Below, piece by piece: positions 28,125-48,694 of a stretch of 64,000 nt of DNA (the stretch's first letter is position 1; each line of letters begins with the position of its first letter). A program made the position numbers and the translations under genes. Below the pieces are notes generated by a model. That model did no database searches and was not told the origin of the DNA. It worked only from the letters and a program-made list of their open reading frames with translations. The DNA is from Prevotellaceae bacterium (GTDB lineage Bacteria; Bacteroidota; Bacteroidia; Bacteroidales; Bacteroidaceae). The stretch covers positions 257-64,256 of the forward strand of contig JAJPYQ010000046.1 in NCBI GenBank assembly GCA_021204865.1, written 5' to 3'.

Positions 28125-28126
28125 GG

Positions 28127-31039: not shown

Positions 31040-31109
31040 GCTCCAAGGCATTAGATAGCTGTTTATGACTTTGGCTTAGAGCAGGAAACCTTGCTGAAGA
31101 TAGCGCTGT

Positions 31110-33722: not shown

Positions 33723-33733
33723 AACAAAAGAAA

Positions 33734-33766
33734 AAGCCCCATAGGAATATTGCACCTATGGGGCTT
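33734..33766 (-). terminator. rho-independent terminator closing the 12-gene minus-strand cluster
   Basis: Perfect 12-bp stem AAGCCCCATAGG / CCTATGGGGCTT with a 9-nt loop. On the minus strand it is followed by TTTTCTTTTGTT. It sits 14 nt after the stop of the last cluster gene. Confidence 0.75.
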
Positions 33767-33779
33767 AGGTAATAATGTT

Positions 33780-35384
33780 TTAGTTCAAAGTTCTTGACTG
33801 TTTATGTGCTTTCTCGTTACGAGGAGTTTGCTTAGGAGTATCAAGCATTATCAAATTTTCAATATAATTTGACTGCTGGATATTCGAACTCTTTGCATTT
33901 GCTCTGCCGTTTTGACGGTAACAATTCCCATTGTTAAGGGGATTACGCCCTTTGAAGGCATTTGTGTTCAAACGGTCAGTGACTTTTGTATTAGGTGACA
34001 GGCTTGGTGCATACATCAAATCAGCATCTATAAATGATACACAGGGATAACCACTTTCCTCACCCCAAACTACGACACAGGTTGTATAGTCTGAAGAAAA
34101 GTAGTAATAGTATCCATATATATTGTCTAATTCGATGTATTTTGTTCCGACTTCAGCCAGCAAATCATCTATAGAAGTAGTGCTACCGTCGTAGTATACA
34201 TCCGTCTCAAACAAACCAGTAGTGGCAGAAGTGAAGTAGTAATCTATCTCGATCTCGTAGCCATTGCCATCATAGCCGAGAGCATAAGAGCCATCACTTG
34301 TGATTTCTGCACTCCCAGTCGAGCCATAGTACATATTGTAGCCACTCATAAACGTCTGAACGGCTGAAACTGTACCTCCCCATGTCGTGTATACATCAGG
34401 TATATAGGAAATAGTAGTGGTGTTACCGCCGCCAGTGTAGTGAGTAAGGTTGTCGAGCCAAGCGTCATATCCGCTCTTCTCACCGAAGTAGGTTGTTGCA
34501 GCTGTGTTGTCGCCATTGTAGCTCATTCCACCGTAGTATGTCTTGCCGTCTTCAAGCGCAGAGGTGCCCGCGTTGCTGTTGTAGTGGGTATACGTTGTTG
34601 TGCCTGCATTTTCGCTCTTCTGGAACACGAACTCCCAATCAATTGATGCATCGAGAAGATATCTTGTGTGTCTGATGGAGCTTTCGCTGCTCACTGTCAC
34701 TTTGTCACGGAGCATGAAGTATCCCGTGTTAGTGAGGTCGAGATTAAATTTCTCGTCCCTTGAGAGGCTTGGATCTAAGCTATACGAATCTGTTATGTCT
34801 ATAGTGCCGAAGCCGACGTATGGATATGACGACTGGTCGTAGTCTAAATATGTCAGTTCCACAAGTGAGCCAATAGCTTCTGGAGTCACGCTGATGGTGC
34901 TGTTGCTTGAGATGTTAGCCTCGGTGGTGCATACGCCAAGTACGTAGGGATAAGTCACTTGAGCGCCTTCCACTGATATTTTCAAAGTCTTAAGGCTAAG
35001 AGTGTCTGTATACTCCCAATAGTAGGGGAGATAGTCGTCTTCCTCGTCTACTGCTGTCTCTATCGTCACGAAGGTGTACTTTCCACCCTCCAGTTGAAAC
35101 TCTTGTTTAGCTACGTTCAGTGAATATTGGCATGTTGTCTGGCTGGTCACCAGTTGGTTGTCAGCGTCGTAGACGTAAGTCTTAACGCTTATGGCTGATG
35201 TCTGGTCTCTCACGAAGTCAAGCATATCGCTGACTAAGTCAAATGTTTCATACATACTCTGCGTGGTGACATTATAGGTCACAGTGCTTAGCGAGCCGAC
35301 AGTTTCTATCTCTATGTCATCGTTTGAGCAAGAGGTGACGAACAACGTTGTAAGCGCAATCGCGGCAAATATAATCTTTTTCAT
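33780..35384 (-). CDS. hypothetical lipoprotein (last gene of the cluster)
   Basis: MKKIIFAAIALTTLFVTSC lipobox. Thr/Tyr/Ser-rich beta-type sequence. No family recognised. Confidence 0.6.
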   Translation of the reverse strand: MKKIIFAAIALTTLFVTSCSNDDIEIETVGSLSTVTYNVTTQSMYETFDLVSDMLDFVRDQTSAISVKTYVYDADNQLVTSQTTCQYSLNVAKQEFQLEGGKYTFVTIETAVDEEDDYLPYYWEYTDTLSLKTLKISVEGAQVTYPYVLGVCTTEANISSNSTISVTPEAIGSLVELTYLDYDQSSYPYVGFGTIDITDSYSLDPSLSRDEKFNLDLTNTGYFMLRDKVTVSSESSIRHTRYLLDASIDWEFVFQKSENAGTTTYTHYNSNAGTSALEDGKTYYGGMSYNGDNTAATTYFGEKSGYDAWLDNLTHYTGGGNTTTISYIPDVYTTWGGTVSAVQTFMSGYNMYYGSTGSAEITSDGSYALGYDGNGYEIEIDYYFTSATTGLFETDVYYDGSTTSIDDLLAEVGTKYIELDNIYGYYYYFSSDYTTCVVVWGEESGYPCVSFIDADLMYAPSLSPNTKVTDRLNTNAFKGRNPLNNGNCYRQNGRANAKSSNIQQSNYIENLIMLDTPKQTPRNEKAHKQSRTLN

Positions 35385-35414
35385 AGTTATAGTTGTTTAA
35401 TGTTGTTTATCGTT

Positions 35415-36155
35415 TTAGAACTTGCACACGCTGAACATCCACGACAGGGATATCTCCAGAGAGCCCATCTTGCAGGGCATATTACCAGCCAACTTGCTTG
35501 TGCCGATGTTGTAGCGAGCGTTGATATCAAGCCCGGTGTTTGGAATAGTGTAGCCTAGACCCACGAGAGGGTGTATGTCCATAGGCTTCAGCTTACTGCC
35601 GTCTGTGTCAAGATTGTAAGTCACACTCGAATAATCTGGGCTTGGATCCTGAACGCTGAGACTCTTTGGGCTGCGGGAGAGCGCTGCTCCAAACGAAACT
35701 CCAGCCTCTATATAGAATGAGTTCATGCTGCTCATCTTGGCGCATGGATACACGTGAACGTAGATAGGCACTTCAAAGTAGCTGACCGAGAGGCTTGCCT
35801 TCTCCTTCCCTTTCTCGTCGGTACCCAAGGTCTTGACGCTGTTGTTCTTGTACTTAAGTTCCCAGCCAATGCCGAAAAGACCAGTGCCTCCAGCAGAGTT
35901 GCGGGTGGCTTTGCCCAGTCTCAATTTCATGGCAACGCCTGCTGAGTATCCAATACCCATAGCGTCGTAGAGGTCGCCCTCGTTGGGCTGTGTCATGCTC
36001 GAAAGAGTGAGACCTATCTTCGGTCCCATATAGAAGCCATTCCACTTCCGCTTGACTGGGATGGTTTCCTCTTCTCCGTCGTCAATTTGTGCGAACATTG
36101 GCGCCGCAGTGAGCAGGGCCAACAGCAAGATTGTAATTTTCTTCATACTCCTCAT
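35415..36155 (-). CDS. small outer-membrane beta-barrel protein (OmpA-barrel / porin-like)
   Basis: Signal peptide ...APMFAQ, alternating hydrophobic strands (GIGWELKY, VSFGAAL, GLGYTI), and a C-terminal aromatic residue ...SVCKF. Confidence 0.65.
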   Translation of the reverse strand: MRSMKKITILLLALLTAAPMFAQIDDGEEETIPVKRKWNGFYMGPKIGLTLSSMTQPNEGDLYDAMGIGYSAGVAMKLRLGKATRNSAGGTGLFGIGWELKYKNNSVKTLGTDEKGKEKASLSVSYFEVPIYVHVYPCAKMSSMNSFYIEAGVSFGAALSRSPKSLSVQDPSPDYSSVTYNLDTDGSKLKPMDIHPLVGLGYTIPNTGLDINARYNIGTSKLAGNMPCKMGSLEISLSWMFSVCKF

Positions 36156-36190
36156 TTAATTATTAGGATTAATAAATAGTAAAATTATTT

Positions 36191-37615
36191 TTAGTAGGGT
36201 ACACCATCATCTGGACAACGATCAGAAAATGTGTGGGTTTTGTCTATAACCTTGCCGCAGTACGAGCATGTCTTGTGTGCCCCGTTGTTTGGACAATAGT
36301 CGTCCCCTTTCTTTGTGCTGTCTATGAGTCTCTTGCAGATAGAACATCTCTTTTGCTGAGTTGGGGGTGGAGTCGAACCGCCACCAATTGGTTTGGGTTC
36401 TGTGAATGTATAGGTGACAGAACCCTCATAGAGCAGAAGGTCGTCGCAGCTAACACTTAGCTGGTAATCCATATTGCCAGCTTTGGCTGGTGTCACCGTG
36501 AAGGAATATTCATCTTTTCCTCCCGATTTTGTAGCTTTATACTCTGTGCCTTTGCCATCTTTTACCATCACAGTCATTGTGTTGTTTTTCCATACGTCAG
36601 GAACAGAAAGGGTGAACTTGCACGTCTGAGGTTTCTTGTCGCACGTAAGTTTTTGGCTTTCGGCGATCGCACTGAAACTGCCATTGTCCACATAGCGTAG
36701 TATGCCTTTGTGGTCGTTCTTCTCCACTACAGCCAAATCGTCTATGAACGATGTGGCATACGAAAGTTGGCAGGGAAGTATGATGTTGTCACCGTCAGCA
36801 TAGCCATATCTGCCGTCGTCGTCCTTGTTGGGAGACAGACCGACACTGCCTGTGGAGATTTGTTTTGTGAATGGAATCTCCTTGTTTTTTCCAGTGATGC
36901 ATGAAAAGCGCGAGAGATAGTCGAACGAACTCTTGTCGGGAACTTTAGCTTTAGCGCATTTTTCTTTCGTGTGAACGTCGTATGTGTAGGTGCGCCCGTA
37001 GCTGTCTACAATGTAGGCTTTCCCTTGGTAGACGCTTGTTATCACGGCTACGTCGGCAACTCTTGGCAGCTCAATGTACATCCTTGTGCCTTTTTTGTTG
37101 ATGAGCTGGTATTTGCCATTTGCTGCTCGAACAGCGGCATAGCCCTCCACGAAAGGCTTTATGAGGTTGTATTTATCGTCGAAGCCTAAGACTGCATAGC
37201 CCTTATCGTCGATATAGCCCACACGCCCTTGCTCATCGCGCACTGAAAGGAGACCATCAGAGAAGAAGTTCTGCCCTGTCAGTGTGTAGTATTTGCTGCC
37301 GAGGCTGTTATACACGCCGTCATCAGTCAGGTAGCCGTTTATTATTTCTCCCTTGTCATCGAAGGAAGTCAAGAGGGCTTTATGCTCATAGAAGCCTGTT
37401 ATATTGTTATTGATCAGTGGCGCAACCTCCTTGCCGCTTGCATCGATGAGGCCCAGCAGTTTGTTGCTTCTCACCTTGTAAAGGTTCTCTTTCACTCTTT
37501 CGATGCTCTGGTAGTCTGCGTCTGCATTGGGCTTCATTTGCCATACAACAGTCTGCCCCATAGCGCTCAGCCAGCACGAAGCTGTGGCTAAAACTATTAT
37601 AATCCTATTCTTCAT
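36191..37615 (-). CDS. WG-repeat (KWG-type) protein with two C-terminal CxxC...C zinc-ribbon-like motifs
   Basis: Signal peptide MKNRIIIVLATASCWLSAMGQ. Repeated units GLIDASGKEV, GYIDDKGYAVLGFDDKYNLIKPFVEGYAAV, YQLINKKG and YGYADGDNIILP. Tail CSICKRLI...YCPNNGAHKTCSYCGKVI...RCPDDG. A 4-nt ATGA overlap joins it to the upstream PP2C gene. Confidence 0.65.
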   Translation of the reverse strand: MKNRIIIVLATASCWLSAMGQTVVWQMKPNADADYQSIERVKENLYKVRSNKLLGLIDASGKEVAPLINNNITGFYEHKALLTSFDDKGEIINGYLTDDGVYNSLGSKYYTLTGQNFFSDGLLSVRDEQGRVGYIDDKGYAVLGFDDKYNLIKPFVEGYAAVRAANGKYQLINKKGTRMYIELPRVADVAVITSVYQGKAYIVDSYGRTYTYDVHTKEKCAKAKVPDKSSFDYLSRFSCITGKNKEIPFTKQISTGSVGLSPNKDDDGRYGYADGDNIILPCQLSYATSFIDDLAVVEKNDHKGILRYVDNGSFSAIAESQKLTCDKKPQTCKFTLSVPDVWKNNTMTVMVKDGKGTEYKATKSGGKDEYSFTVTPAKAGNMDYQLSVSCDDLLLYEGSVTYTFTEPKPIGGGSTPPPTQQKRCSICKRLIDSTKKGDDYCPNNGAHKTCSYCGKVIDKTHTFSDRCPDDGVPY

Positions 37616-39015
37616 CGTTTTGTCTGCTTAATTATTTTTTCGAGTTCTGCTAATCTTTTCAATTGTACATTTAAGTTGTACTGACACGTCCTCGTTGTGT
37701 GGAATTTGCTATGAATTTTGTACTTATCGACATACCATAGTAGACTGTCGTTTTGGACATCTGCATATATCGAGTCAAACTTCAGCTTTGCTGCCTCTAT
37801 ATCCTGAATAAGTGGGTGCAGACTGTCTGTAAGGGCTCTTGTATTCGTTTTGTAATTGTCTATAGCTTCCCTCGCTTCCTTTTCTTCGGTGCAATTGATA
37901 GCTATCGCCCCCTTGAAGGCTTGGCGTAGGTTCCCTATTAACTTCATAATGCTGTCGGTGACGCACAATGCTACAGGCTGTTCAATGGAGTCTTTTTTGA
38001 TCGTGTCCACGACTGCTATACTGTCCATTTTTACGGGGATTGCCGCATAGTTTGTCTTCTTCCGAGATCTTCCTTTTCCTCCTGGATAGCCAGTGTTTAT
38101 AGTATTATCTTCTGTCGTGTTCTTGTGGTTATAGAACTCTCTTATTTTCTCGCTCGACAACAAGATAATCACTATGGCTGCTAAAAGTATGGCGCAGCCA
38201 CCGAGTATGGCTATCATTCTGTTGCGGGCTGTGGTGTCCACCATCTCCGAGTCCACGTCGATGTCGAATATGGCCAACGTGTGGTTGTCGTGGTTTCCGC
38301 CCTTGGCAAAACCCACCTTGTCTATCTCCTCGGATATGTTAGACACAAGATTGCCAATGTCTGTATCGGTGCTGAGTCTGTCCAGCAAGTCTTTGTGGGG
38401 CATAATGCCCCATACACCGTCCGTGCAAAGGACAAAGCGGTCACCCTTCTTGTAAGGTATCTCGTCTATGTCTGGAACGTGGTTACTAACGTTGCCCAAT
38501 CCCCGTGTGATGATGTTCGACTGTGGTGAGACCCTCGCTTCTTCCTCCGTGAGTGCTTTGCTCCTCACGAGTTCTGCCACGAGAGAGTGGTCGGCACTCT
38601 TGTAGCGCACCTTCTTTCCCCTGAGGCAATAGCATCGGCTGTCACCTGCATGGGCTATCATTGCGGAGTGGCTGTTGATGAGGATTGCCACAAAAGTGGA
38701 GCCCATTCCGCTTAGTTGCGGCACATCCTTCACCTTGTTCTCCAAGGCTTCCTCGGCTTTTGCCACCGCCATCTTCAGCGCTCGTTCACGGGATGTCGTA
38801 GCGTAGCATTGGCAAAGGGCTGTGGCTATTTCACGCTTGACAATGTGTGAAGCGGTTTTTCCTCCCGGACCTCCGCCCATACCGTCGCAAATGATGAGAA
38901 GAAAGCCAAGGGGAGTGTCGATGAAACCGTAATCGTCTTGGTTCTCTTGACGTCCTCCCTGCATAGAGTTGGCGGCTCCATGCAGGGCTATTGTGTCAGA
39001 CTTGATGATATTCAT
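37612..39015 (-). CDS. membrane-anchored PP2C-family Ser/Thr phosphatase with an extracytoplasmic C-terminal domain of about 190 aa (PP2C-1)
   Basis: GGRQENQDDYGF...ICDGMGGGPGGKTAS...CTDGVWG motifs and a TM helix MIAILGGCAILLAAIVIILL. Start chosen at MNIIKSD (39015), which matches the length of the paralogue at 43238-44293. The alternative ATG at 39066 would overlap the upstream gene by 17 nt. Confidence 0.75.
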   Translation of the reverse strand: MNIIKSDTIALHGAANSMQGGRQENQDDYGFIDTPLGFLLIICDGMGGGPGGKTASHIVKREIATALCQCYATTSRERALKMAVAKAEEALENKVKDVPQLSGMGSTFVAILINSHSAMIAHAGDSRCYCLRGKKVRYKSADHSLVAELVRSKALTEEEARVSPQSNIITRGLGNVSNHVPDIDEIPYKKGDRFVLCTDGVWGIMPHKDLLDRLSTDTDIGNLVSNISEEIDKVGFAKGGNHDNHTLAIFDIDVDSEMVDTTARNRMIAILGGCAILLAAIVIILLSSEKIREFYNHKNTTEDNTINTGYPGGKGRSRKKTNYAAIPVKMDSIAVVDTIKKDSIEQPVALCVTDSIMKLIGNLRQAFKGAIAINCTEEKEAREAIDNYKTNTRALTDSLHPLIQDIEAAKLKFDSIYADVQNDSLLWYVDKYKIHSKFHTTRTCQYNLNVQLKRLAELEKIIKQTKR

Positions 39016-39049
39016 TGGGTAGGGATGTGCTTGTGAAGGCTGATGATGC

Positions 39050-39766
39050 TTATAAATAGACAGCAAGGAGGCCGATTCCTGAAATTATTGACAATGAAAC
39101 GCATACGCATACCAATACAACACCCACCTTGGTCCAAGTGGCTTGCACTTTCTCAAACTCGGCCACACTGCTCCATTGCTTATTGTTCCAAGCCCATTCG
39201 TTGCCTTGTAGGCCACATATAACGGAAAGGACCAGAGCAGCAATTGAGGAGATGATATTGACGAAGGGTATGCAAGCGCATACGTAAAGCACCACATAGA
39301 TGACAAAGATCCACCAGCACCCATTGCCCAGACTCCATATCCAATTCAGCAGAAAAGCTCCCCAGTTCCATTTATGCAGGTCGGGCATCTCAGCCTTGCT
39401 CTCAGAATTGCTTGTCACCTTTATGCCAAAGTTGTCTCCGGTGACGCTGTTGTTTCCTGCACCGCTGTTGTGTGCAGCGTTTCTTGTCGAACTGCTGTTG
39501 GCTTCGGGAAAGAACGCACAAATTTGATTCCAGCTTATCGGGTATTTGCCTGCCAGCATTATGATGTCTCCATACTTGATAGGTACGGCTCTTTGCTTCA
39601 CATGGACATTGTTTATCATCGTGCCGTTACTACTCGTGTCCTTATACATCAGCTGGTCGGCATCATAATATATTATGGCGTGTCGGTTGCTGGCATAGGC
39701 ACATCTTTGGTCGATATAGATGTCGCTGTCCGCTTGTCTCCCGATAGTGACTTCTCTTAGGTTCAT
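39050..39766 (-). CDS. FHA-domain protein with a DUF2628-like multi-TM C-terminus (FHA-2)
   Basis: N-terminal VTIGRQADSDIYIDQRCAYASNRHAIIYYD...SSNGTMINNVHV...GDIIMLAG (FHA signature G-R...S..H...N-G). C-terminal WNWGAFLLNWIWSLGNGCWWIFVIYVVLYV plus further hydrophobic helices. Confidence 0.7.
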   Translation of the reverse strand: MNLREVTIGRQADSDIYIDQRCAYASNRHAIIYYDADQLMYKDTSSNGTMINNVHVKQRAVPIKYGDIIMLAGKYPISWNQICAFFPEANSSSTRNAAHNSGAGNNSVTGDNFGIKVTSNSESKAEMPDLHKWNWGAFLLNWIWSLGNGCWWIFVIYVVLYVCACIPFVNIISSIAALVLSVICGLQGNEWAWNNKQWSSVAEFEKVQATWTKVGVVLVCVCVSLSIISGIGLLAVYL

Positions 39767-39787
39767 TCTTTTCAGAAGCTTTGTTTG

Positions 39788-41074
39788 TTATTTGACTATG
39801 AAGGGCATAGCCTTCTTCGTTATCTGATCATAGAGTGCAAACACGCCCTGGCCAGTGACAAAGTACTCAAGTCTTGTGGTGTTGTTGACGCTCGTCTCGG
39901 AAGAAGACAGGGCGAACTTCTGTATCTCGAAAATGTCCGCACTAAAGTAATATGCTGGTATCTTACGGTCAGCGTCCTTGTTCACCTTCACCAACATAAG
40001 GTTGTCACTCGACATGTGATTAGGGTTGCTGTATTCTACAATGATCTTGGTTGTGGTCGTGCCCTTAGGCACCAAAATCTTCCTGTTTATGCTGTCGAGT
40101 ATAAGATACGAACCTTCTTTTTTGACCCCCACAGAGTCCGCTGCCATACGGTTTATCAGCACTTCTCCTGGCTGCAGTAGAATGTCGTAGAGGGGCTTAT
40201 ATTCACTGTTGTTTTCGCGTATGTAGTCTATGATTTCGTCGAACTTAACAGTTTGCGTAGAGCCAGAAGGTTGCATTATCACAAGATAGTTGTTGTTGTC
40301 AGTGAAGTTCTTCTCCACTATGACACCGCGGAAGACTGCATTCTTGGTGTACACCACATCGGTCAGCGGACTTTGCTCGAAGATGGTTTGATTTGGATTG
40401 ATGGGCTTGTAGAAATACTTAACCACATCGTCAATGTTGAAAGTCTGCACCGTGCCGTCTTCCATATACAGGCTCAGAGTGTTGTACGACTCACCAGCGT
40501 ACTCGCCTTTTACTTCCTGTCCATTCTTGAGCTGGTAGATACGGTCAATGCCAGAGAGCGCTTCCTTTGGTCTGCGTTCACTCTTTATAACGTCCACGTC
40601 GCTCCAGTTGAACGAGTATGAGTTGGGCGTGAATTCCACATACTTTATAGTGTAGCCTCTCTCCAGCACTTTCACTTTCGACACGCTCTGGTGTCTGTCC
40701 TTGAAGTCGTTCTCAAACGAAGTCGCAGTTCCGCTCACCACTGTGTCTGAAGCTGTTTTGGGGAATGAAATCTCGTTGAGTGTCAGGGTGCGGTCGCTGC
40801 CAGTACCATTGTAAGCGTGGTTCTTTTCAGCCCATTCTTTCCACGTGTCGTCCAGCTCGCTTTCCTTGTACACCTGCTCAGTGATGGTAGCCCCCACACC
40901 GCTGACGCACACGATGGCGTTCTCGCTCTGAAACGTTATGTCTTCGTTACCGCCCTGCTTTTGTATAAAGCCGTTGAGCACTGTGCCGTTTTTCAGTTGT
41001 ACTCTCTGCACCACTTCGGCTTTCGTGTAGGTCAGAGAGGCTAACAGTGCCAGCAAAACAAATGTCTTCTTCAT
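39788..41074 (-). CDS. hypothetical secreted protein
   Basis: Signal peptide MKKTFVLLALLASLTYTKAEV. 428 aa, beta-rich. No family recognised. Confidence 0.55.
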   Translation of the reverse strand: MKKTFVLLALLASLTYTKAEVVQRVQLKNGTVLNGFIQKQGGNEDITFQSENAIVCVSGVGATITEQVYKESELDDTWKEWAEKNHAYNGTGSDRTLTLNEISFPKTASDTVVSGTATSFENDFKDRHQSVSKVKVLERGYTIKYVEFTPNSYSFNWSDVDVIKSERRPKEALSGIDRIYQLKNGQEVKGEYAGESYNTLSLYMEDGTVQTFNIDDVVKYFYKPINPNQTIFEQSPLTDVVYTKNAVFRGVIVEKNFTDNNNYLVIMQPSGSTQTVKFDEIIDYIRENNSEYKPLYDILLQPGEVLINRMAADSVGVKKEGSYLILDSINRKILVPKGTTTTKIIVEYSNPNHMSSDNLMLVKVNKDADRKIPAYYFSADIFEIQKFALSSSETSVNNTTRLEYFVTGQGVFALYDQITKKAMPFIVK

Positions 41075-41101
41075 ATCTTTTCTGAATTAAAAATTATCCT
41101 C

Positions 41102-42586
41102 TCACTTCTTGTGTGGGCTATCAATAAGCTCCTTTATATATTTTGCCTTGACACCTTGGTTGATGTTTTCTTTTGTCACGCCAGAATGATGAACACCTAT
41201 CAGCATTCCTTTGTCGTTGAACACTGGCGAACCGCTTGCCCCACCAGCAGTCACAGCATCATAGTTGAAGTCGAACTCACCGCTCTGTTGCGTGACTTTT
41301 CCCTCATGGCAGAATACTTGAATTCCCTTCTCGCCTTCCAAATCTTGCAAACTCATTCCATACGGGAAACCTACCGTGAACATCGTTTTCCCTACTTCAA
41401 TGGCATCTTCTGACACGTCCATCGAGTCCTTTATGTTTACGTATGAGCAATTCTTGTTGGGCAATGTCATCTTGTCGCTTTGGATGAGAGCCACATCCTT
41501 GTTTATGTCATCCCCAGCAGAAAGCACAGTGCAGTATGTTGCATTCTCTGGAGAAAAGAAACTGCCTTGAGGAACAAGCATTATACCGTCACTGACTCCA
41601 ATAATTTTGATCTGCGAAGTGTAAGCCGTGAGCCCTAATGATGGATATTGTTCAGCAATCCCGGCAAAATATCTACGAAATAGTTGCTCAAATTGGGCTA
41701 TCTCTTCTGCCTTTGTCGGCTCCAACCAGGGCTTCACGACATGGAGATTGGTGATAATCTTGGCATCTTCTGAAATAAAAAAGCCCGTTCCGGTATACAC
41801 AGTCGAACCTGACATTCCTGGGGTGACTGGTACAATTTCGCCGTTCTTATCAAACACAAACTTTGTGTAGAGCTTGTCACTCACATCTACCCCAAAATCG
41901 TTTACCTCTAAGTGATAACTGCCAACAAGCATAACTACCGAAGAACTATACCTGTCGTTGATCATAGCGGCTGTCCATGTCTTATGGCTTAATAGTTTGT
42001 ATATCCCAAAGCCAATGCCCACGAGCAGTATTGCGCAAGCAGCTACACCCAAGATAGCCTTCCATGAATCGTTAGCCCATGGCAAGCGGCTTAGATCAAC
42101 TCTCACGCCACCGCAAATCACCACGCTTTTGCGCTTCAGAACATAGGGAGTGTTTGGCATTATTTTCTGCCCGTCAACAGTGGTGCCGTTCTGGCTGTGG
42201 TCGAAGATATACATCTTGCCGTTCTTGCCCTGTTTCACCGTGGCGTGGTAGCGGCTGACTGTGGCTCCGGATATCTGAAAATCGTTGTTGAAGTGGCTGC
42301 CGATACCGAATAGAGCTTTGTATGCCGAGTTGTCTTCGGGTGTGGGTACCTTGCTCCAGTCCAGTTGAGTGTCAGCGAACTGTACGGCATCGAATCTGTT
42401 GATTTTCACTGTGGAGCCTGGCTTCATCTGCTGGTTTCCGATGTAGGTTCCGTTAAGGCTATTCTTGTCTTCCAGCATTATGTCGCCATTGTCCATCAGT
42501 GTAAGCTCCGCATGTACAGAGCTTACTCTCTGACTATTCAACACGATATCGCATTTTGCGCTGCGGCCAATCTTAAGTAATCGCAT
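41102..42586 (-). CDS. FHA-FHA-TM-trypsin-like serine protease fusion
   Basis: FHA 1: LKIGRSAKCDIVLNSQRVSSVHAELTL...SLNGTYIGN. FHA 2: ISGATVSRYHATVKQ...SQNGTTVDGQKI. TM helix ILGVAACAILLVGIGFGIY. Protease triad candidates are ITNLHVV, KDVALIQ and GGASGSPVF. Confidence 0.75.
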   Translation of the reverse strand: MRLLKIGRSAKCDIVLNSQRVSSVHAELTLMDNGDIMLEDKNSLNGTYIGNQQMKPGSTVKINRFDAVQFADTQLDWSKVPTPEDNSAYKALFGIGSHFNNDFQISGATVSRYHATVKQGKNGKMYIFDHSQNGTTVDGQKIMPNTPYVLKRKSVVICGGVRVDLSRLPWANDSWKAILGVAACAILLVGIGFGIYKLLSHKTWTAAMINDRYSSSVVMLVGSYHLEVNDFGVDVSDKLYTKFVFDKNGEIVPVTPGMSGSTVYTGTGFFISEDAKIITNLHVVKPWLEPTKAEEIAQFEQLFRRYFAGIAEQYPSLGLTAYTSQIKIIGVSDGIMLVPQGSFFSPENATYCTVLSAGDDINKDVALIQSDKMTLPNKNCSYVNIKDSMDVSEDAIEVGKTMFTVGFPYGMSLQDLEGEKGIQVFCHEGKVTQQSGEFDFNYDAVTAGGASGSPVFNDKGMLIGVHHSGVTKENINQGVKAKYIKELIDSPHKK

Positions 42587-42604
42587 ATCTAAATTCTTTT
42601 TAAA

Positions 42605-43225
42605 TCATTTATACTGGTTCCTCCCACTCTTCTTGTCGGAGTCTTTCTTGTCGCCGTCCTCTTTCTTGTCGTCAGTCTTCTTGTCATCGGTCTTTTCCTT
42701 GTCATCACCGCCTTTTTTAGAGGTTTTTTGCTGATTTCCTTTCTTAGCTTTGGAGGTGTTTGAGGGTTGTCCGCCCTTCTTTTTGTCGGCTTCTTCGCTC
42801 TTCTTGTCGCTCTCCTCTTGATCTACTGCTTTTGTGGTGTCCGTCACCACTTCATTTTCTGAGGGTTTGGAACCGCCTCGGTGCGACTTTATTGCGCTAT
42901 AGCCGAAGAAGCCACCAACTACCAAGATGATAAGTACTATCAGGATGGTCACGTAGCGCAGTGCCGTTTTGCTTTTCGGTACCATATTCCAGTCGAGGCG
43001 TGCTACGTGAGCAAAAGAAATGTTGTCTTTTCTTGTCACTGGTACGGGCACATTCTGCGAGATGCGTATGCCATTCACGTAGGTACCGTTTTGGCTTATA
43101 TCTGTGATTGTCATCTTGCCAGAAGACGCCACTGTTAGTGTGGCATGCCTGCGGCTCACCACGTCGGTGCTGTCGTTTATGAGAATGTCGCACCCTACTT
43201 CTCTTCCAATACTGTAAACTTTCAT
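42605..43225 (-). CDS. FHA-domain protein with one TM helix and a Lys/Asp/Glu-rich tail (FHA-3)
   Basis: YSIGREVGCDILINDSTDVVSRRHATLTV...SQNGTYVNG. TM helix YVTILIVLIILVVGGFFGY. Tail ...KKGGDDKEKTDDKKTDDKKEDGDKKDSDKK. Confidence 0.7.
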   Translation of the reverse strand: MKVYSIGREVGCDILINDSTDVVSRRHATLTVASSGKMTITDISQNGTYVNGIRISQNVPVPVTRKDNISFAHVARLDWNMVPKSKTALRYVTILIVLIILVVGGFFGYSAIKSHRGGSKPSENEVVTDTTKAVDQEESDKKSEEADKKKGGQPSNTSKAKKGNQQKTSKKGGDDKEKTDDKKTDDKKEDGDKKDSDKKSGRNQYK

Positions 43226-43237
43226 ATAGTTGAGTTG

Positions 43238-44293
43238 TTATTTGTTCTTGGTCTTGTCGGGGTTCGTTGTAGTTTCTCCGCTCTCCGTCGTGGTCTTAGA
43301 GATGACTGTTTGGCTGGCAGAAGTCTCAGTTGACCCCGTCCCGGCAACGGATTCTTGCTGTTCGGTGGTTACACTGTCTGTTGTCACGGCATTGATTTCA
43401 CTCTTGTGACCACTGCAACCTTGCACAATGTTTATGACAATGCTCATCACCAGTAGCAGTGCCAGAACCATTATTATCAGTTTCGATTGTCTTGTCATTT
43501 TGGGCTTAATTATTGAGTCTTTAGTTGTTTCCACAATTGCTATGGTGAGGTTGTCGTGCACCATCCCTGAGCTTCTGCCTATGTTGTCAATGCGGGTGGC
43601 TATGTCGTCGGTTAACACACCCAGCTTCGGGCGTTTGTCGCTCATCATCTTCACGAGTTCCGCCTCAGGCATTGCCCCGTGGATACCGTCAGTGCATAGC
43701 ACAAAGCGGTCTCCCCTCTGGTAAGGAACTCGATGTATTTCCACTTCTACATCTGGTCTTATTCCCAGTGCGCGGGTTATTACATTGGATTGTGCCGACA
43801 GGCGTGCTTGCTCTTCCGTTATCACTCCCTGTGCCACCATCTCGAAAACCAGTGAGTGGTCGAACGTGCGGAACACCTTGCGTCTATATCTTAACTGATA
43901 CACCCTGCTGTCGCCCACGTGAGCCACATAGGCGCAATTTTCGGCTATCAACAGCACTGTTGCGGTGGAGCCCATGCCTCTAAGCGAAGGTGTACGGTTG
44001 CCTTCCTCAATGATGGCCATATTGGCTTTTCTCACTGCCTTTATGATAGTGTTTGATATGTCTTCTCCTTGTTCGCAACCGCTTACGCCTTCCAGTATCT
44101 CGTTCACGGCTATCGACGATGCGGTCTTTCCTCCAGGACCTCCTCCCATTCCGTCGCATACGGTCACCAGATAGCCCCATTTTGTTTGTCGCCACCCGAA
44201 GGAGTCTTGGTTTTCACGTCTGCCTCCTATGCGCGATTCAGCGAAGGCGCGCACTAAGCCGTTGTTGTCGTTATATATTTTCTGTAGTTCCAT
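43238..44293 (-). CDS. membrane-anchored PP2C-family Ser/Thr phosphatase (PP2C-2)
   Basis: GGRRENQDSFGW...VCDGMGGGPGGKTAS...CTDGIHG. TM helix LIIMVLALLLVMSIVINIV. Ser/Thr-rich tail. Confidence 0.8.
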   Translation of the reverse strand: MELQKIYNDNNGLVRAFAESRIGGRRENQDSFGWRQTKWGYLVTVCDGMGGGPGGKTASSIAVNEILEGVSGCEQGEDISNTIIKAVRKANMAIIEEGNRTPSLRGMGSTATVLLIAENCAYVAHVGDSRVYQLRYRRKVFRTFDHSLVFEMVAQGVITEEQARLSAQSNVITRALGIRPDVEVEIHRVPYQRGDRFVLCTDGIHGAMPEAELVKMMSDKRPKLGVLTDDIATRIDNIGRSSGMVHDNLTIAIVETTKDSIIKPKMTRQSKLIIMVLALLLVMSIVINIVQGCSGHKSEINAVTTDSVTTEQQESVAGTGSTETSASQTVISKTTTESGETTTNPDKTKNK

Positions 44294-44321
44294 AATAGCC
44301 TATTGGGATTCACTATGCCTG

Positions 44322-45338
44322 CTACATTGTGCTTGATAATATGATGACGAACGCCAATACTACAATCACTGCGATTAAGACGGCCGTCAGAACAATATGA
44401 TTTTGCATCCATGCCGAGAACTTATCACCAGTTTTTAGCTCTGGCTTTATGGCCTCTTGTATTGCGTTTCTCATTTCCTCAGCGCTTTGAAAGCGTTTAG
44501 ACTGGTCTTTTTCAGTCGCTTTCCAGATCACTTTCATCAGTTTCTTTGGTATGTCCTTGTGGCTGGGCAGATTGTCCGAAAGCTGTTTTTTCAGGGTTTC
44601 TGCCTGCGAAGGGGCATCCATCGGATTTTCTTCTGTGAGAAGCTCGTAGAATGTTATGCCAAGCGCATACAAGTCTGTGGTGGCGTTTATGGTGCCGGCG
44701 CCGTCTTCGCCTCTCTTTATTTGCTCCGGAGCGGAGTATTGTGGAGTGCCGATGAAACCGAATTGAGAGTATTGGTTGCCTCCGTTCATTCTTGATATGC
44801 CAAGATCCATCAGTCGAACGTTAGAGTTGTTCTCCACCATGATATTCGAAGGCTTAATGTCTCTGTGTATCACTCCACGTGAATGTATGTACTCCAGTGC
44901 GTCCAGTACAGAGCACATAGCCCTGCATACCATATCAACTTTGCGCTGGGGTGCAAGCTTCTTCACATATTCGTCAAGGTCTTCTCCTTTCACAAAGTTG
45001 CTGAGCAGGAAAATAGGCCCGTAGTCGGGGGCGTACTCGCAATAGCCTATCATTTCCACAAGGTTTGGGTGGCGGAACGCAAGCGAAGCCTCCTGTCTGG
45101 CTCTTTCCCTTATCATTTTGTTGCTGGCATAGGAGTCTTTCACCCGCTTTACTGCTATCTCTAAACCATTCGAACACCTGTAGCCGAGATACACATCACC
45201 CATTGCACCGCTGCCCAAGGGCTTGTCATTAGGGTTGTAGCAGTACCACTCGTTCATCACGTGCAGATATAAGTAGGGATCCTTCGGGTAGTTCTTCCCC
45301 CAAGTCACGCTGGGCATATTTTGATGAGCTTGTGGCAT
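44322..45338 (-). CDS. Hanks-type Ser/Thr protein kinase, C-terminally tail-anchored (STK-2)
   Basis: G-loop LGSGAMGDVY, IAVKRV, catalytic loop HRDIKPSNIMV, DLG in place of DFG, SAPEQ, and a terminal TM helix IVLTAVLIAVIVVLAFVIIL. Confidence 0.85.
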   Translation of the reverse strand: MPQAHQNMPSVTWGKNYPKDPYLYLHVMNEWYCYNPNDKPLGSGAMGDVYLGYRCSNGLEIAVKRVKDSYASNKMIRERARQEASLAFRHPNLVEMIGYCEYAPDYGPIFLLSNFVKGEDLDEYVKKLAPQRKVDMVCRAMCSVLDALEYIHSRGVIHRDIKPSNIMVENNSNVRLMDLGISRMNGGNQYSQFGFIGTPQYSAPEQIKRGEDGAGTINATTDLYALGITFYELLTEENPMDAPSQAETLKKQLSDNLPSHKDIPKKLMKVIWKATEKDQSKRFQSAEEMRNAIQEAIKPELKTGDKFSAWMQNHIVLTAVLIAVIVVLAFVIILSSTM

Positions 45339-46859
45339 TTACATCTCTTTTAGCTGTTCCAACTTATTCAGATAATCTTTTATCATGCCCACATACTTTG
45401 CGTCATTGGCCTCTTCGGCGTACTCGAGAGCTTGACGATAGTATTTTTCGGCCTGTACCTCATCTCTTTCTTTCACTGCATCTGTTCGAGCACTTGCACC
45501 GAAGAAGTCACAAGCGTATTCGTAGAGGGCGTGATAGTTGGTACTGTCTTGTTCGATGGCTTTCTTTAGCAGCATGTGTGCTGCCACGTTGTTGATTTGG
45601 ACATCCAGTTCTTCTCTGAATGTAAGTATCGAGTCTGGGCAAGCCTCGCGGTCGCGTTCGGCGTTGCTCTGGAACATCATGAGGGCGCGCAGCGTCGTTG
45701 CCCTTGAGTCTCCTGTATCCGACAAGTATTTCAGCATATTCAATGCCTCTTTACCTTCCTCTCCTCCTTTGTGCATTTGTGTGATGACTTCGTCGTAGGT
45801 TATTTTCTGGGGAGTAGGAACAGGACGCCGAAGCAGGACAACAATGGCTATGACAGCGCATACAGCGATGCCCCCAACAATGAAGCTGTATGAAGTCCTC
45901 CACTGGTAGTTCGCTTTAATTCCTTTCTCTGCTTGTCCTATAGCCGAGAGAAAAGAAGCTGCGCTGTCGAAGCGCTCTTTGCGCGCCTTCTTTGTGGCCT
46001 TGTCTATAATCTGCCTCAGCGCGCCGTATTTCACTTGTCTCAGAGGCAGATGCTTGTGTAACTGGGCTTGCAGGATCTCACTCCTGTCGCCGTTGAAAGG
46101 TGTGTGGCCGGTGATTAGCTCGAAAAGCATTATCCCCACGGCATACAAATCAGTTCTGCCGTCTTGCTCGTTTATGGCACCAACTACAAGTTCTGGAGCG
46201 GCGTATTTAGCTTTACCCACAAACTGGCCTGCCTGCGTGAGCTGCTTGTCGTGGCTTGTCATGGTGTTAACCTTCTTGGCTATACCGAAGTCGATAAGCT
46301 TTATGCGCCTGTCGCTTGTCACCATTATGTTCGAGGGGTCGATATCACGGTGAATATAGCCGTTGGCATGCATCGTTATAAGTCCGTTCAGCACGCTTTT
46401 CACTATTCTTATGGCGAACTTGTCTGGGTGACTCTTGTAGAGGTTGTACAGCTCTTCAGCGAAATCCACTTTGTTGCCATACTGGTCTGTCACATAGCCT
46501 GCCAACAATTTGTCGAGCGGCACTCCTATGAGCAGTTCGCTGACGACGTGGTAGTGGTGTGTGGGCATGCCAAGCTCGTCTGTGCTTACTTGATCAATGA
46601 AGCCCAGCATCTCAATGAGATTCTGGTGGGTAAAGTGGATGTTTGCCTCTCGCTTAGCCTTTTCTATGGCGTATGGAGGCAGATCGCTATACATGAACTT
46701 GATGGCCACATCTTTGCTGGTCTTGGCTTTCTCGTCAATGCATTTTCCCCTGAAGACCTTGCCCATTCCGCCTTCTCCCAGTGGACGTTCACTTGCATCG
46801 AGTTCATAGTATATGCCCCGGAGCTTCTCCTCTTTACCGTATATCTTGTATTTCGCCAT
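45339..46859 (-). CDS. Hanks-type Ser/Thr protein kinase with a TM helix and a TPR/Sel1-like extracytoplasmic domain (STK-1); non-canonical catalytic loop
   Basis: LGEGGMGKVF, VAIKF, HRDIDPSNIMV (Asp where Lys is expected; GAC codon at 46340-46338), DFGIAK, AAPEL, and TM helix FIVGGIAVCAVIAIVVLL. The C-terminal helical repeats end ...AEKYYRQALEYAEEANDAKY. Its stop directly abuts the STK-2 start. Confidence 0.85.
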   Translation of the reverse strand: MAKYKIYGKEEKLRGIYYELDASERPLGEGGMGKVFRGKCIDEKAKTSKDVAIKFMYSDLPPYAIEKAKREANIHFTHQNLIEMLGFIDQVSTDELGMPTHHYHVVSELLIGVPLDKLLAGYVTDQYGNKVDFAEELYNLYKSHPDKFAIRIVKSVLNGLITMHANGYIHRDIDPSNIMVTSDRRIKLIDFGIAKKVNTMTSHDKQLTQAGQFVGKAKYAAPELVVGAINEQDGRTDLYAVGIMLFELITGHTPFNGDRSEILQAQLHKHLPLRQVKYGALRQIIDKATKKARKERFDSAASFLSAIGQAEKGIKANYQWRTSYSFIVGGIAVCAVIAIVVLLRRPVPTPQKITYDEVITQMHKGGEEGKEALNMLKYLSDTGDSRATTLRALMMFQSNAERDREACPDSILTFREELDVQINNVAAHMLLKKAIEQDSTNYHALYEYACDFFGASARTDAVKERDEVQAEKYYRQALEYAEEANDAKYVGMIKDYLNKLEQLKEM

Positions 46860-46942
46860 ATCTTGTCTCTGCTTTAGTCTTTTGCCAGAAACATTTTTAG
46901 ATAATCATTGTCTGATGGCTCGCACCTTGCCTCAAGTGCTTA

Positions 46943-47728
46943 TCACATAGGTATGGTACCGCCGCTTTTTGTTGGCGTTTGTCCGTCCATCCCTATTGTT
47001 CCGTCCGACGACCCGCCTTTTCTGTTAGGTGTCCATCCGGCTGTGTTGCCAGTGAACGGATCGAAGCCCCCAGGGCGGGTTGACCTATCTGAAAACGATG
47101 GAGGCATGTTGTCTTCTATCTCTTCCTCGGGCTCTGGCTCGTTGGTTGGTATGAACTCTTTGCTTGTTGACAGCCCGCTTGCCGCTGCGTCAATCAGCAG
47201 GAACAAGAGCTTGTAGTTGTTGCCTATAGTTATGACATCTCCGTTGTGGCACTCTTCTGCCTCGAAGTCTATCATTTCGCCGTTCAGCATTGTGCCGTTG
47301 GTGGACTCGGTGTCTTTAATGGCGGCAATGATACCGTTTTTGCCTTGTCGAGTGATGATGACGGCATGGTTGTTGGACACTGTGCCTTCTGCCAACACTA
47401 TATCAGAGCTTCCTGACTGCCCGATGGTGTTCTTCCCCATCTGGATGGGCCAATATTCACCCACTGGAGTGCGGGAGATGGAGTAGAGAAAGCCAACGAT
47501 AGGCTTACCTGACCGTATGGGTCTTTGTTGTCTTGTCTGGGAAGGGGCTGCCTCTGCAACATTGCCGGATGGAGTGTATGGCGCTTCGCCCATACCTGGC
47601 ACAACGGTGCCACGTGCGGCTGAGCTGGTGCCTCGTGAGTAGAAGTTCTGACCTACGCCTCTTTGCGCTCTTCCGTTATTGTTATCCTCTGGCTCTAAGC
47701 CCTGGACAACAGTTTTCTTTTGTGACAT
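46943..47728 (-). CDS. soluble FHA-domain protein (FHA-4), first gene of the cluster
   Basis: The central region is FHA-like: PIVGFLYSISRTPVGEYWPIQMGKNTIGQSGSSDIVLAEGTVSNNHAVIITRQ...STNGTMLNGEMI...GDVITIGN. The flanks are Gly/Pro/Ser-rich with no TM helix. Confidence 0.7.
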   Translation of the reverse strand: MSQKKTVVQGLEPEDNNNGRAQRGVGQNFYSRGTSSAARGTVVPGMGEAPYTPSGNVAEAAPSQTRQQRPIRSGKPIVGFLYSISRTPVGEYWPIQMGKNTIGQSGSSDIVLAEGTVSNNHAVIITRQGKNGIIAAIKDTESTNGTMLNGEMIDFEAEECHNGDVITIGNNYKLLFLLIDAAASGLSTSKEFIPTNEPEPEEEIEDNMPPSFSDRSTRPGGFDPFTGNTAGWTPNRKGGSSDGTIGMDGQTPTKSGGTIPM

Positions 47729-48447
47729 AGTAGTTATATTTATGGTTAGCTGTTTGCATCAAAGTGTTCTGTGTAATGCGATATGAAAACTTAATACGGT
47801 ATACTGATTGTAGTGTACAGATTAAGTTTGTGCAAAGGGTCAATCCCAGCGCACTTGAGAAGCGCTTTCCCCAAGCCTGAAGGTTGCCCGAACAAATCGT
47901 GTCTTCAGTGGCACTTTGCCTGGCTTTTGTGATCTGTATCACATTCATATCTGTATGACTAAACATCATTCTTAGTTGAACTCAGTTTTAGGCATAAAAA
48001 AGCGTGAGAGTGACTTGTTGTCCATCCCACGAACCGAGGCTCTAGCAATCGCCCATTATTGTTGAACAGACAACGTCAGAGCCCACGCCGATATGAATTA
48101 AATTCTACCTTAAGAGTCCTGAATAAAAAACAACCTTGCATCATATAAGGACACAACCTGCCTTTATTAACAGGACTCCTCGGGCGAAACATCACACCCG
48201 GAACATCTACCGTTGCGAAGTTCGAGACAACAACTACCGTAATTTGCTAGATTCCGGTTCGTCAAGAACACAGCGCCACGTAAACGCCTTCAATATGTCG
48301 TGGACTGTAGTCCCGCCCAAAACCCGCTTCACATACATTGTCACCTGACGGCAACGCTGTTATGTTTAGCTCGGCGTAGGTCACCAACCCTCATCATAAA
48401 AGAACTCGTCAATTGGCGATTCGGGTTATGGTGTTACAGTCCGAATG

Positions 48448-48455
48448 CAAAGTTA
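48448..48455 (-). promoter_or_regulatory. -7 box-like TAACTTTG on the minus strand inside the ORF-free region
   Basis: The reverse complement of caaagtta is TAACTTTG. It lies about 720 nt upstream of the first cluster gene, so it would give a very long leader or a separate RNA. Confidence 0.3.
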
Positions 48456-48551
48456 TATGCTTTTTTCCATTGTGCAAGCAAAATCGGAAAATATTTTTTA
48501 TTTCATTCGTCCCCCTTCTTTAAAACAACTATACGCATATTGACTATAGTG

Positions 48552-48559
48552 CAAAGGTA
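48552..48559 (-). promoter_or_regulatory. -7 box-like TACCTTTG on the minus strand inside the ORF-free region
   Basis: The reverse complement of caaaggta is TACCTTTG. No ORF of 60 aa or more follows it on the minus strand. Confidence 0.3.
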
Positions 48560-48668
48560 GATATTGGGCTTAAAGCGTCGTCTTCAGTTCAGGCGGCATT
48601 TATATTTAGCTATGATATATGGTGTCTCTTTGCCTTGTGCAAAAGACATAAGATTAGCGTTATTTGCG

Positions 48669-48676
48669 TACCTTTG
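48669..48676 (+). promoter_or_regulatory. -7 box TACCTTTG for the dehydrogenase gene
   Basis: Exact match 19 nt upstream of the ATG at 48695. Confidence 0.5.
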
Positions 48677-48694
48677 CGGTAGAAAGATTGAGCT

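Follow-up and report, generated by a model that had tools for sequence, protein, structure and literature searches.

Control of membrane machines through docking of FHA domains on phospho-threonine (pThr) has been described in two bacterial systems, namely the Fha-TssL pair in type VI secretion (T6SS; PMC3953482), and the FHA-FHA-ABC transporter Rv1747 of M. tuberculosis (PMC5549992). The combination of two FHA domains with a trypsin-like protease has been listed once, as 'FHA-FHA-Tryp' of Bacteroides thetaiotaomicron (NP_811686.1), in the 2008 survey of Tripathi and Sowdhamini, where the entry is a table row with the generic comment 'metabolism and signalling' (PMC2605481). In the current analysis we have studied a gene for a protein of this architecture, hereafter the target, in a contig of a Prevotellaceae bacterium (JAJPYQ010000046.1, assembly GCA_021204865.1); the whole stretch of DNA analysed, 64,000 nucleotides in length, is referred to as the window. 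The target is a membrane-anchored protease of S1 type whose phospho-reader is predicted to be cytoplasmic; it is widespread and uncharacterised, and of an architecture already known to databases.

Relatives of the target are entered in databases as 'FHA domain-containing protein' or 'FHA protein/S1-C subfamily serine protease'. In the literature searched we have found neither a functional, structural or genetic study of the family with two FHA domains, a transmembrane helix and a protease, nor a characterised example of a pThr reader coupled to a periplasmic protease. Two papers on conflict systems from the Aravind laboratory name FHA and trypsin as separate effector domains only, and the literature matches to locus tags around BT_2771-2776, a tentative number derived through the offset of a SusD accession, were unrelated crystallography codes. 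A preliminary description of the window, made from the sequence alone, did not recognise the fusion as a characterised protein type. This holds for the function, no study having been found, and does not hold for the architecture, which was catalogued in 2008 (PMC2605481) and is abundant in databases. The B. thetaiotaomicron entry presumably belongs to the same family as the target, on the grounds of the same architecture and the same bacterial order.

The open reading frame of the target starts with ATG and encodes 494 residues, in the order FHA, FHA, transmembrane helix and protease (Table 1). The N-terminus MRLLKIGR is kept in homologues, with M1, K5, I6, G7 and R8 invariant in the close alignment (A1), and the start codon assignment is therefore considered right; nothing resembling a signal peptide is seen at this conserved N-terminus before the first FHA domain (FHA1). 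The FHA family of Pfam (PF00498) is matched in two stretches with an E-value of 1e-31 and 109.6 bits, against a gathering cut-off of 20.7. Trypsin_2 is assigned to residues 266-465 with the full model covered (E-value 3.7e-14, 54.1 bits against 27.6) and Trypsin is also matched (E-value 2.5e-8), while no PDZ domain is matched in the 494 residues at E<=1. In the AlphaFold model, which has a mean predicted local distance difference test score (pLDDT) of 78.6, the protein ends five residues past the last predicted secondary-structure element, a helix at 481-489. The domain order proposed in the preliminary description is thus borne out by Pfam, by hydropathy and by the AlphaFold helix, and the absence of PDZ from the protease part by Pfam; the three motifs quoted in it, ITNLHVV, KDVALIQ and GGASGSPVF, are all found and carry H282, D364 and the nucleophile respectively. 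It is confirmed that the reading frame, the motifs and the neighbouring kinases and phosphatases are no chance pattern, and the architecture and topology of the protein are well supported.

A single hydrophobic segment, AILGVAACAILLVGIGFGI (residues 177-195, Kyte-Doolittle hydropathy 2.56), separates the FHA half from the protease half and is covered in the AlphaFold model by a 26-residue helix (174-199). FHA domains are readers of a cytoplasmic modification. Since the protein has one transmembrane helix and its FHA domains are N-terminal without a signal peptide, a topology with the N-terminus inside and the C-terminus outside is assigned. The net charge beside the helix in 221 relatives is +1.27 on the N-terminal side and +0.29 on the C-terminal side (p=6e-16).

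When only the protease part was used as query, an exhaustive search gave 1393 matches at E<=1e-3. Among the best 150 representatives, 91 have two FHA domains, a transmembrane helix and the protease, 14 have one FHA domain in the same arrangement, about 20 are without FHA and the remainder are mostly fragments. Judged from these architectures, proteases of this clade are as a rule fused to FHA. About 12 of the relatives without FHA carry an N-terminal signal or anchor immediately before the protease domain, which argues that the clade acts outside the cytoplasm. The earlier placement of the protease outside the inner membrane and of the FHA domains inside it therefore agrees with the number of transmembrane helices, the lack of a signal peptide, the net charge and the relatives without FHA. 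The target is accordingly predicted, with good support, to be a bitopic inner-membrane protein with cytoplasmic FHA domains and a periplasmic protease.

The ordered His, Asp and Ser triad of S1/HtrA type proposed for the protease domain is upheld, the three residues aligning with the triads of HtrA1, V8 and DegP. The serine context GGASGSPVF given earlier is present, with the correction that the nucleophile is S451, the first serine of GASGSP, and not S453, because GGASGSP aligns through this serine with GNSGGP of HtrA1 and GNSGSP of V8. A profile-sequence comparison (hhalign) with the protease domain of E. coli DegP sets GGASGSP on RGNSGGA and D364 and S451 on the catalytic Asp and Ser, a placement to be read with some caution as regards the DegP sequence used in this step. 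Conservation has been counted in 131 relatives, which are full-length representatives of 50%-identity clusters and share about 30-56% identity with the target. Asp364 and Ser451 are present in all of them (131/131 each) and His282 in 129, both exceptions being alignment gaps. Since the triad is intact in 129 of the 131 representatives at such divergence, the protease appears to be kept active by selection; the domain bears the signature of a catalytically competent enzyme, selected as such.

The family-specific insertion between the His and the Asp is modelled as helices at 290-313 and 320-325, and its residues P286-W287-L288 are invariant in alignment A1. Single-sequence and profile alignments stop short of the Asp because of this helical stretch, which follows the His and is about 40 residues long. 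Comparison of the model with the PDB by Foldseek has given HtrA1, DegP, DegQ, DegS and Esp as top matches, with probability 1.0, E-values of about 1e-11 and template-modelling scores of about 0.7 relative to the matched PDB structures. The double beta-barrel chymotrypsin fold of the PA clan (S1) is thus found in the AlphaFold model and by Foldseek, and the His-Asp-Ser order with the GxSGxP nucleophile motif is found in the sequence and profile alignments. The C-terminal PDZ domain of the HtrA/Do family (MEROPS S1C) is missing by Pfam, and the NCBIfam model TIGR02037 (degP_htrA_DO) scores 39.4 bits where its cut-off is 416.2, so that the protein is not a bona fide HtrA. The closest solved relatives in single-sequence search are V8/Spl-type S1B enzymes, and the protease is therefore placed between S1B and S1C. 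The NCBIfam scan of the target has revealed no curated family at its cut-off, and a search of a viral structure library has given generic trypsin folds only.

FHA1 has the complete canonical set of pThr-binding residues (G7-R8, S22, H25 and N45-G46-T47), all invariant in alignment A1. The second FHA domain (FHA2) has this set in part: S111, H114 and N133-G134-T135 are retained and Ser97 stands in place of the 'GR' arginine. The full pThr-binding signature is for this reason confined to FHA1. Across the wider family the 'GR' arginine position is variable in both domains. From these residues a role as pThr reader is credible for FHA1 at least, whereas FHA2 may have degenerated. The linker between the two domains is of about 10 residues, and Thr82 within it is not conserved.

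The first homology search has identified more than 800 full-length matches of the same Pfam architecture, and the second, with the Bacteroides rodentium ortholog as query, 1287 clusters at E<=1e-20. With each species represented by one genome, a scan has yielded 340 encoding loci. The 80 of these that were listed are nearly all labelled as Bacteroidales, including Prevotella, Bacteroides, Phocaeicola, Muribaculaceae, Parabacteroides, Alistipes and Paraprevotella. Cultured strains carrying the operon to which the target belongs include Phocaeicola massiliensis, B. rodentium, Prevotella pectinovora and Xylanibacter caecicola. Two loci (L004 and L030) are filed as Lachnospiraceae and Oscillibacter 'cleanbin' assemblies, with target matches 61% and 48% identical to the protein of the window, which falls in the range of the loci labelled as Bacteroidales; they are probably binning contaminants and not Firmicutes occurrences.

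No named B. thetaiotaomicron member is seen among the best 120 matches to the B. rodentium ortholog. This species has been listed with only two Hanks kinases (PMC1262709). The operon may represent the entire Hanks kinase complement in some gut Bacteroides.

The target is the sixth gene of a string on the minus strand running from 47728 to 31110, with gaps of at most 83 bp and two overlapping junctions (Table 1). The kinases and phosphatases that the preliminary description placed beside it are real and lie in one operon with it, as seen from Pfam and gene order, and their catalytic motifs are present. The order soluble FHA protein, Ser/Thr kinase, Ser/Thr kinase, PP2C, FHA-transmembrane protein and target is shared by 83 loci and persists down to about 30% identity. 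The two kinases, the two phosphatases and three of the FHA proteins each have a membrane anchor, which sets all the players in the same membrane plane. We read the target as a constant member of a Ser/Thr phospho-signalling operon that is anchored in the membrane and specific to Bacteroidales.

Table 1. Features of the target gene and of its operon, with positions in the window
Feature	Position	Strand	Evidence
Target, whole gene; FHA-FHA-transmembrane-S1 protease, 494 residues and stop codon	41102-42586	(-)	Open reading frame; Pfam; more than 800 full-length homologues of the same Pfam architecture
FHA1, residues 1-78, predicted cytoplasmic	42353-42586	(-)	Pfam FHA 5-70; residue conservation
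FHA2, residues 88-168, predicted cytoplasmic	42083-42325	(-)	Second Pfam FHA stretch; conservation count
Single transmembrane helix, residues 177-195; predicted signal-anchor, N-in/C-out	42002-42058	(-)	Hydropathy; AlphaFold helix; flank charge
Chymotrypsin-fold serine protease domain (S1, HtrA/V8-like), residues 203-494, predicted periplasmic, no PDZ	41105-41980	(-)	Pfam; Foldseek; PDB sequence and profile matches
Catalytic His282 (TNLHVV)	41741-41743	(-)	Aligned to HtrA1 TNAHVV and V8 TNKHVV
Helical insertion specific to the family, located between His and Asp (residues 286-325, about 40 in number)	41612-41731	(-)	AlphaFold; split HtrA1 profile alignment
Catalytic Asp364 (KDVALIQ)	41495-41497	(-)	hhalign, DINKDVALIQ on DegP DPRSDIALIQ
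Nucleophile Ser451 (first Ser of GGASGSPVF)	41234-41236	(-)	Aligned to the Ser of HtrA1 GNSGGP, V8 GNSGSP and DegP GNSGGA
Gene 1, soluble FHA protein (FHA_261), 261 residues, disordered S/T-rich N-terminus, GarA/OdhI-like layout	46943-47728	(-)	Pfam FHA; 74/83 loci
Gene 2, long Hanks kinase (STK_506), 506 residues, transmembrane 325-343, helical ectodomain of about 160 residues	45339-46859	(-)	Pfam Pkinase; hydropathy; motifs
Gene 3, short Hanks kinase of canonical type (STK_338), tail-anchored, 338 residues, HRDIK/DLG/APE	44322-45338	(-)	Pfam Pkinase, E-value 2e-45; transmembrane 315-333
Gene 4, PP2C phosphatase, 351 residues, transmembrane 272-290, S/T-rich external tail, DGMGG motif	43238-44293	(-)	Pfam PP2C_2; hydropathy
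Gene 5, FHA-transmembrane protein, 206 residues, transmembrane 94-112, K/D/E-rich external tail; always directly upstream of the target	42605-43225	(-)	Pfam FHA; synteny
Gene 7, exported all-beta protein, 428 residues, signal peptide	39788-41074	(-)	74/83 loci; AlphaFold pLDDT 87.4
Gene 8, FHA protein with multi-transmembrane DUF2628-like C-terminus, 238 residues; accessory	39050-39766	(-)	Pfam; hydropathy; 30/83 loci
Gene 9, second PP2C, 484 residues, transmembrane 285-303, ectodomain of about 180 residues	37612-39066	(-)	Pfam; NCBIfam Stp1_PP2C
Gene 10, exported WG-repeat protein, 474 residues	36191-37615	(-)	Pfam WG_beta_rep; 50/83 loci
Distal accessory genes overall	31110-36155	(-)	Pfam; NCBIfam; variable across loci
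Outer membrane protein beta-barrel	35415-36155	(-)	Pfam/NCBIfam; 46/83 loci
Lipoprotein-like protein, 534 residues	33780-35384	(-)	Pfam/NCBIfam
Secreted M6 metallopeptidase	31110-33755	(-)	Pfam/NCBIfam

The product of the first gene shows weak NCBIfam matches to OdhI and FhaB. The catalytic loop of the long Hanks kinase reads HRDID in place of HRDxK, with Lys replaced by Asp, and the form HRD[IL]D is present in about 74 of 82 loci; from this loop the protein may be an atypical kinase or a pseudokinase acting as a phospho-scaffold. Its ectodomain is TPR/Sel1-like in appearance and has no Pfam match. The external tails of the FHA-transmembrane protein (low-complexity, e.g. KKTDDKKTDDKKEDGDKKDSDKK) and of the first PP2C are disordered and of extreme composition, and could be protease substrates or spacers. 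The exported protein of 428 residues is a candidate periplasmic partner or substrate. Its model has repeated small beta-barrels and an Ig-like C-terminal part, and on this model it is a structurally unassigned family tied to the operon.

The distal end of the operon varies among the loci. P. massiliensis encodes an eight-gene core ending in WG-repeat and 430-residue exported proteins. The terminal secreted peptidase is of M6 type in the window and in 8 of the 83 loci, of C10 type (streptopain-like) in the Prevotella loci L001-L003 (18536-20014), and absent from the Phocaeicola loci. A NusG-like gene, UpxY-type in appearance, starts the operon in the close Prevotella relatives L001, L003 (4130-4870), L002, L005 and L006; the window has no such leader gene. 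In the metagenomic contig L003, whose operon encodes an identical target protein (P0007), the operon is situated immediately downstream of a TraG/type IV secretion system (T4SS) coupling protein and a lysozyme-like gene (630-3387), and this flank suggests the insertion of a conjugative element nearby or a mobile region. The upstream flank in L001 and L002 is of housekeeping nature (DNA polymerase III delta', PSP1, GldH).

The GC content in the region 30000-48000 is 0.44-0.53 for the genes of the operon, 0.55-0.56 for the neighbours and 0.60-0.64 at the ends of the window, and GC at third codon positions is lower too. Horizontal acquisition of the block is suggested by these values. A tRNA scan for an island border has revealed none. 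A superfamily-1 helicase of 983 residues (Dna2-like/AAA_11/AAA_12; 28088-31039, plus strand) converges on the 3' end of the operon and has a similarly lowered GC content of 0.50. The region upstream of the first FHA gene (47729-48694) is non-coding over about 960 bp, with a GC content of 0.42. A sigma-70 scan has returned 29 promoters against a shuffle mean of 23.7 (standard deviation 5.0), with a consensus that is not applicable to Bacteroidota, and a terminator scan 27 against a shuffle mean of 18.2 (standard deviation 4.2), both counts lying near the shuffle means.

The model that we favour, with a confidence a little short of even, is one in which the periplasmic protease is recruited or activated by pThr docking in the cytoplasm. 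The kinases would place pThr marks on membrane-proximal partners, for example on the kinases themselves or on the S/T-rich soluble FHA protein (FHA_261), and FHA1 of the target would bind these marks. Such docking would cluster or position the target in the membrane, and this in turn would activate the protease or direct it towards co-encoded envelope proteins or ectodomains, until the PP2C phosphatases return the phospho-state to its start. The target would then amount to a DegS-type anchored protease in which the periplasmic PDZ sensor is swapped for a cytoplasmic phospho-reader, giving control of periplasmic proteolysis from the inside. Control of the protease by pThr, with the protease as an output of the kinases, is plausible, and we infer which way the signal runs and what the substrates would be. 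The wider proposal of a previously unrecognised transmembrane signalling system of Bacteroidales, in which cytoplasmic Ser/Thr phosphorylation, read by a bitopic protease through its FHA domains, would govern from the inside the periplasmic proteolysis of co-encoded envelope proteins, as a mirror image of systems of DegS/RseP type, is put forward as a tentative and rather doubtful one.

Several points weigh against this model. In the 221 relatives the K+R counts are equal on the two flanks of the helix, and only the net charge favours the N-terminus inside. Because of Ser97 in FHA2 and the variable 'GR' arginine, part of the docking may need no phosphorylation, as with SctD/MxiG of the type III secretion system (T3SS). 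Clustering or trimerisation as a route of activation through a single transmembrane helix is a guess. The confident model of the 428-residue neighbour has no significant match among PDB folds (best E-value 5.5e-3) and hence gives no clue to the substrate.

The same synteny and topology would also suit a signal passing from the periplasm to the phospho-network, the protease domain sensing or processing the WG-repeat protein, the 428-residue protein or misfolded proteins and the FHA domains forming a scaffold by which kinases and phosphatases are recruited or regulated. Proteases of the HtrA family are classical sensors of envelope stress, and the atypical catalytic loop of the long kinase is reminiscent of pseudokinase-FHA scaffolds, of which MviN-FhaA in mycobacteria is an example. 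However, FHA domains in the systems studied mostly read phosphorylation rather than regulate kinases, ectodomains that could do the sensing are already part of the long kinase and of the second PP2C, and no PDZ or other ligand-sensing module stands beside the protease, so that we consider an adaptor of this kind improbable, though worth keeping in mind. It is less probable still that the target is a component of a trans-envelope assembly, with its FHA and transmembrane modules as a phospho-regulated or phospho-independent scaffold similar to SctD of T3SS, Fha/TagH of T6SS or the Glt FHA proteins, and with a protease that matures surface proteins or exported cargo such as zymogens of the terminal M6/C10 peptidases. 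The outer membrane protein beta-barrel, the lipoprotein and the secreted peptidase at the distal end in the window and in the Prevotella loci would fit such a role, as would the match to Yop-YscD_cpl of Pfam, which is above its cut-off (49.2 bits against 33.2), and weak NCBIfam matches to TagH and GltG. The Yop-YscD_cpl match (5-63), however, covers residues that the FHA match (5-70) takes up as well, and the two models are presumably members of a single Pfam clan. The NCBIfam scores lie well under their cut-offs, that of TIGR03354 being 47.5 bits against 120. The barrel and the terminal peptidase are absent from the P. massiliensis core and from many other loci, and neither a secretion ATPase, a secretin nor T6SS or type IX secretion system genes accompany the target; secretion-system genes are found neither in the operon nor in the 83 related loci. 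Ring-building motifs and linkage to T3SS or T6SS are both missing, the periplasmic part being a protease.

A horizontally acquired island of kinase, FHA and protease genes acting in abortive infection has been considered in view of the low GC content of the operon, the conjugation genes adjoining L003 and the PADLOC matches, which are to PD-T4-6 and mad6 in the kinase domains and to RT-Protease_XI in the protease domain (E-value 8e-11). These matches are generic domain similarities with no system-specific component, the effector domain faces the periplasm and not the cytoplasm, no nuclease, NTPase or TIR-type effector is encoded, and the stable eight-gene synteny across Bacteroidales families with exported partners is unlike the shuffling of defence islands; a role in conflict is therefore regarded as very unlikely. 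A known anti-phage defence system was rejected as a candidate, PADLOC-DB having given generic matches only (PD-T4-6, mad6, PDC-M21C and, in the C-terminal protease part, RT-Protease_XI). Least credible of all is a cytoplasmic or membrane-peripheral protease, in which the hydrophobic segment does not span the membrane or the N-terminus lies outside, so that FHA and protease share one compartment. The equal K+R counts would agree with it, but the hydropathy of the 19-residue segment and its modelling as a long helix, the lack of a signal peptide, the more positive net charge on the N-terminal side and the signal or anchor right before the protease in relatives without FHA all stand against it, and the nearest structural relatives DegP, DegQ and DegS are periplasmic.

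To our knowledge, signalling by Hanks-type kinases has hardly been explored in Bacteroidota. Conservation of the operon extends to hundreds of Bacteroidales species from gut and rumen, including cultured strains and, by the 2008 catalogue, B. thetaiotaomicron. If the favoured model of pThr docking is true, a protease with its regulatory domains across the membrane would be a compact route for cytoplasmic phosphorylation to reshape the cell envelope. The triad, the FHA domains, the two kinases and the one or two phosphatases would offer a defined and genetically tractable entry to the role of Ser/Thr phosphorylation in dominant gut symbionts. Should the target act only as a scaffold, or as an anchored protease with a housekeeping role, it would be no more than a routine domain fusion.

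Among known systems, Rv1747 and T6SS Fha/TssL share with the target tandem or single cytoplasmic FHA domains that are fused to or dock on a membrane machine, with control by a co-encoded Hanks kinase and PP2C (PMC5549992, PMC3953482). The output of the target is a periplasmic protease and not a transporter or a secretion sheath, and the long phospho-acceptor linker between the FHA domains of Rv1747 has no counterpart in it. T3SS SctD (YscD/MxiG/PrgH) has the same layout of a cytoplasmic FHA fold, one transmembrane helix and a periplasmic domain, a likeness reflected in the Yop-YscD_cpl match. SctD differs in that its periplasmic part has motifs for ring building and its FHA fold does not depend on phosphorylation, whereas the target has a periplasmic enzyme and keeps the pThr residues of FHA1; no T3SS genes are seen near it from the Pfam assignments of the neighbours.

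By analogy, the protein that the target would work most like is a DegS-type anchored HtrA, although it falls outside HtrA for want of a PDZ domain. With the DegS/HtrA group (MEROPS S1C; E. coli DegS, DegP and DegQ, human HtrA1) it shares the chymotrypsin fold and the motifs TNxHVV, DxALIQ and GxSGxP, and DegS is similarly anchored in the inner membrane through a transmembrane helix on the N-terminal side, with the protease in the periplasm. The target differs from this group in the absence of PDZ, in the helical insertion of about 40 residues between His and Asp, and in that its regulatory modules are cytoplasmic FHA domains in place of a periplasmic PDZ.

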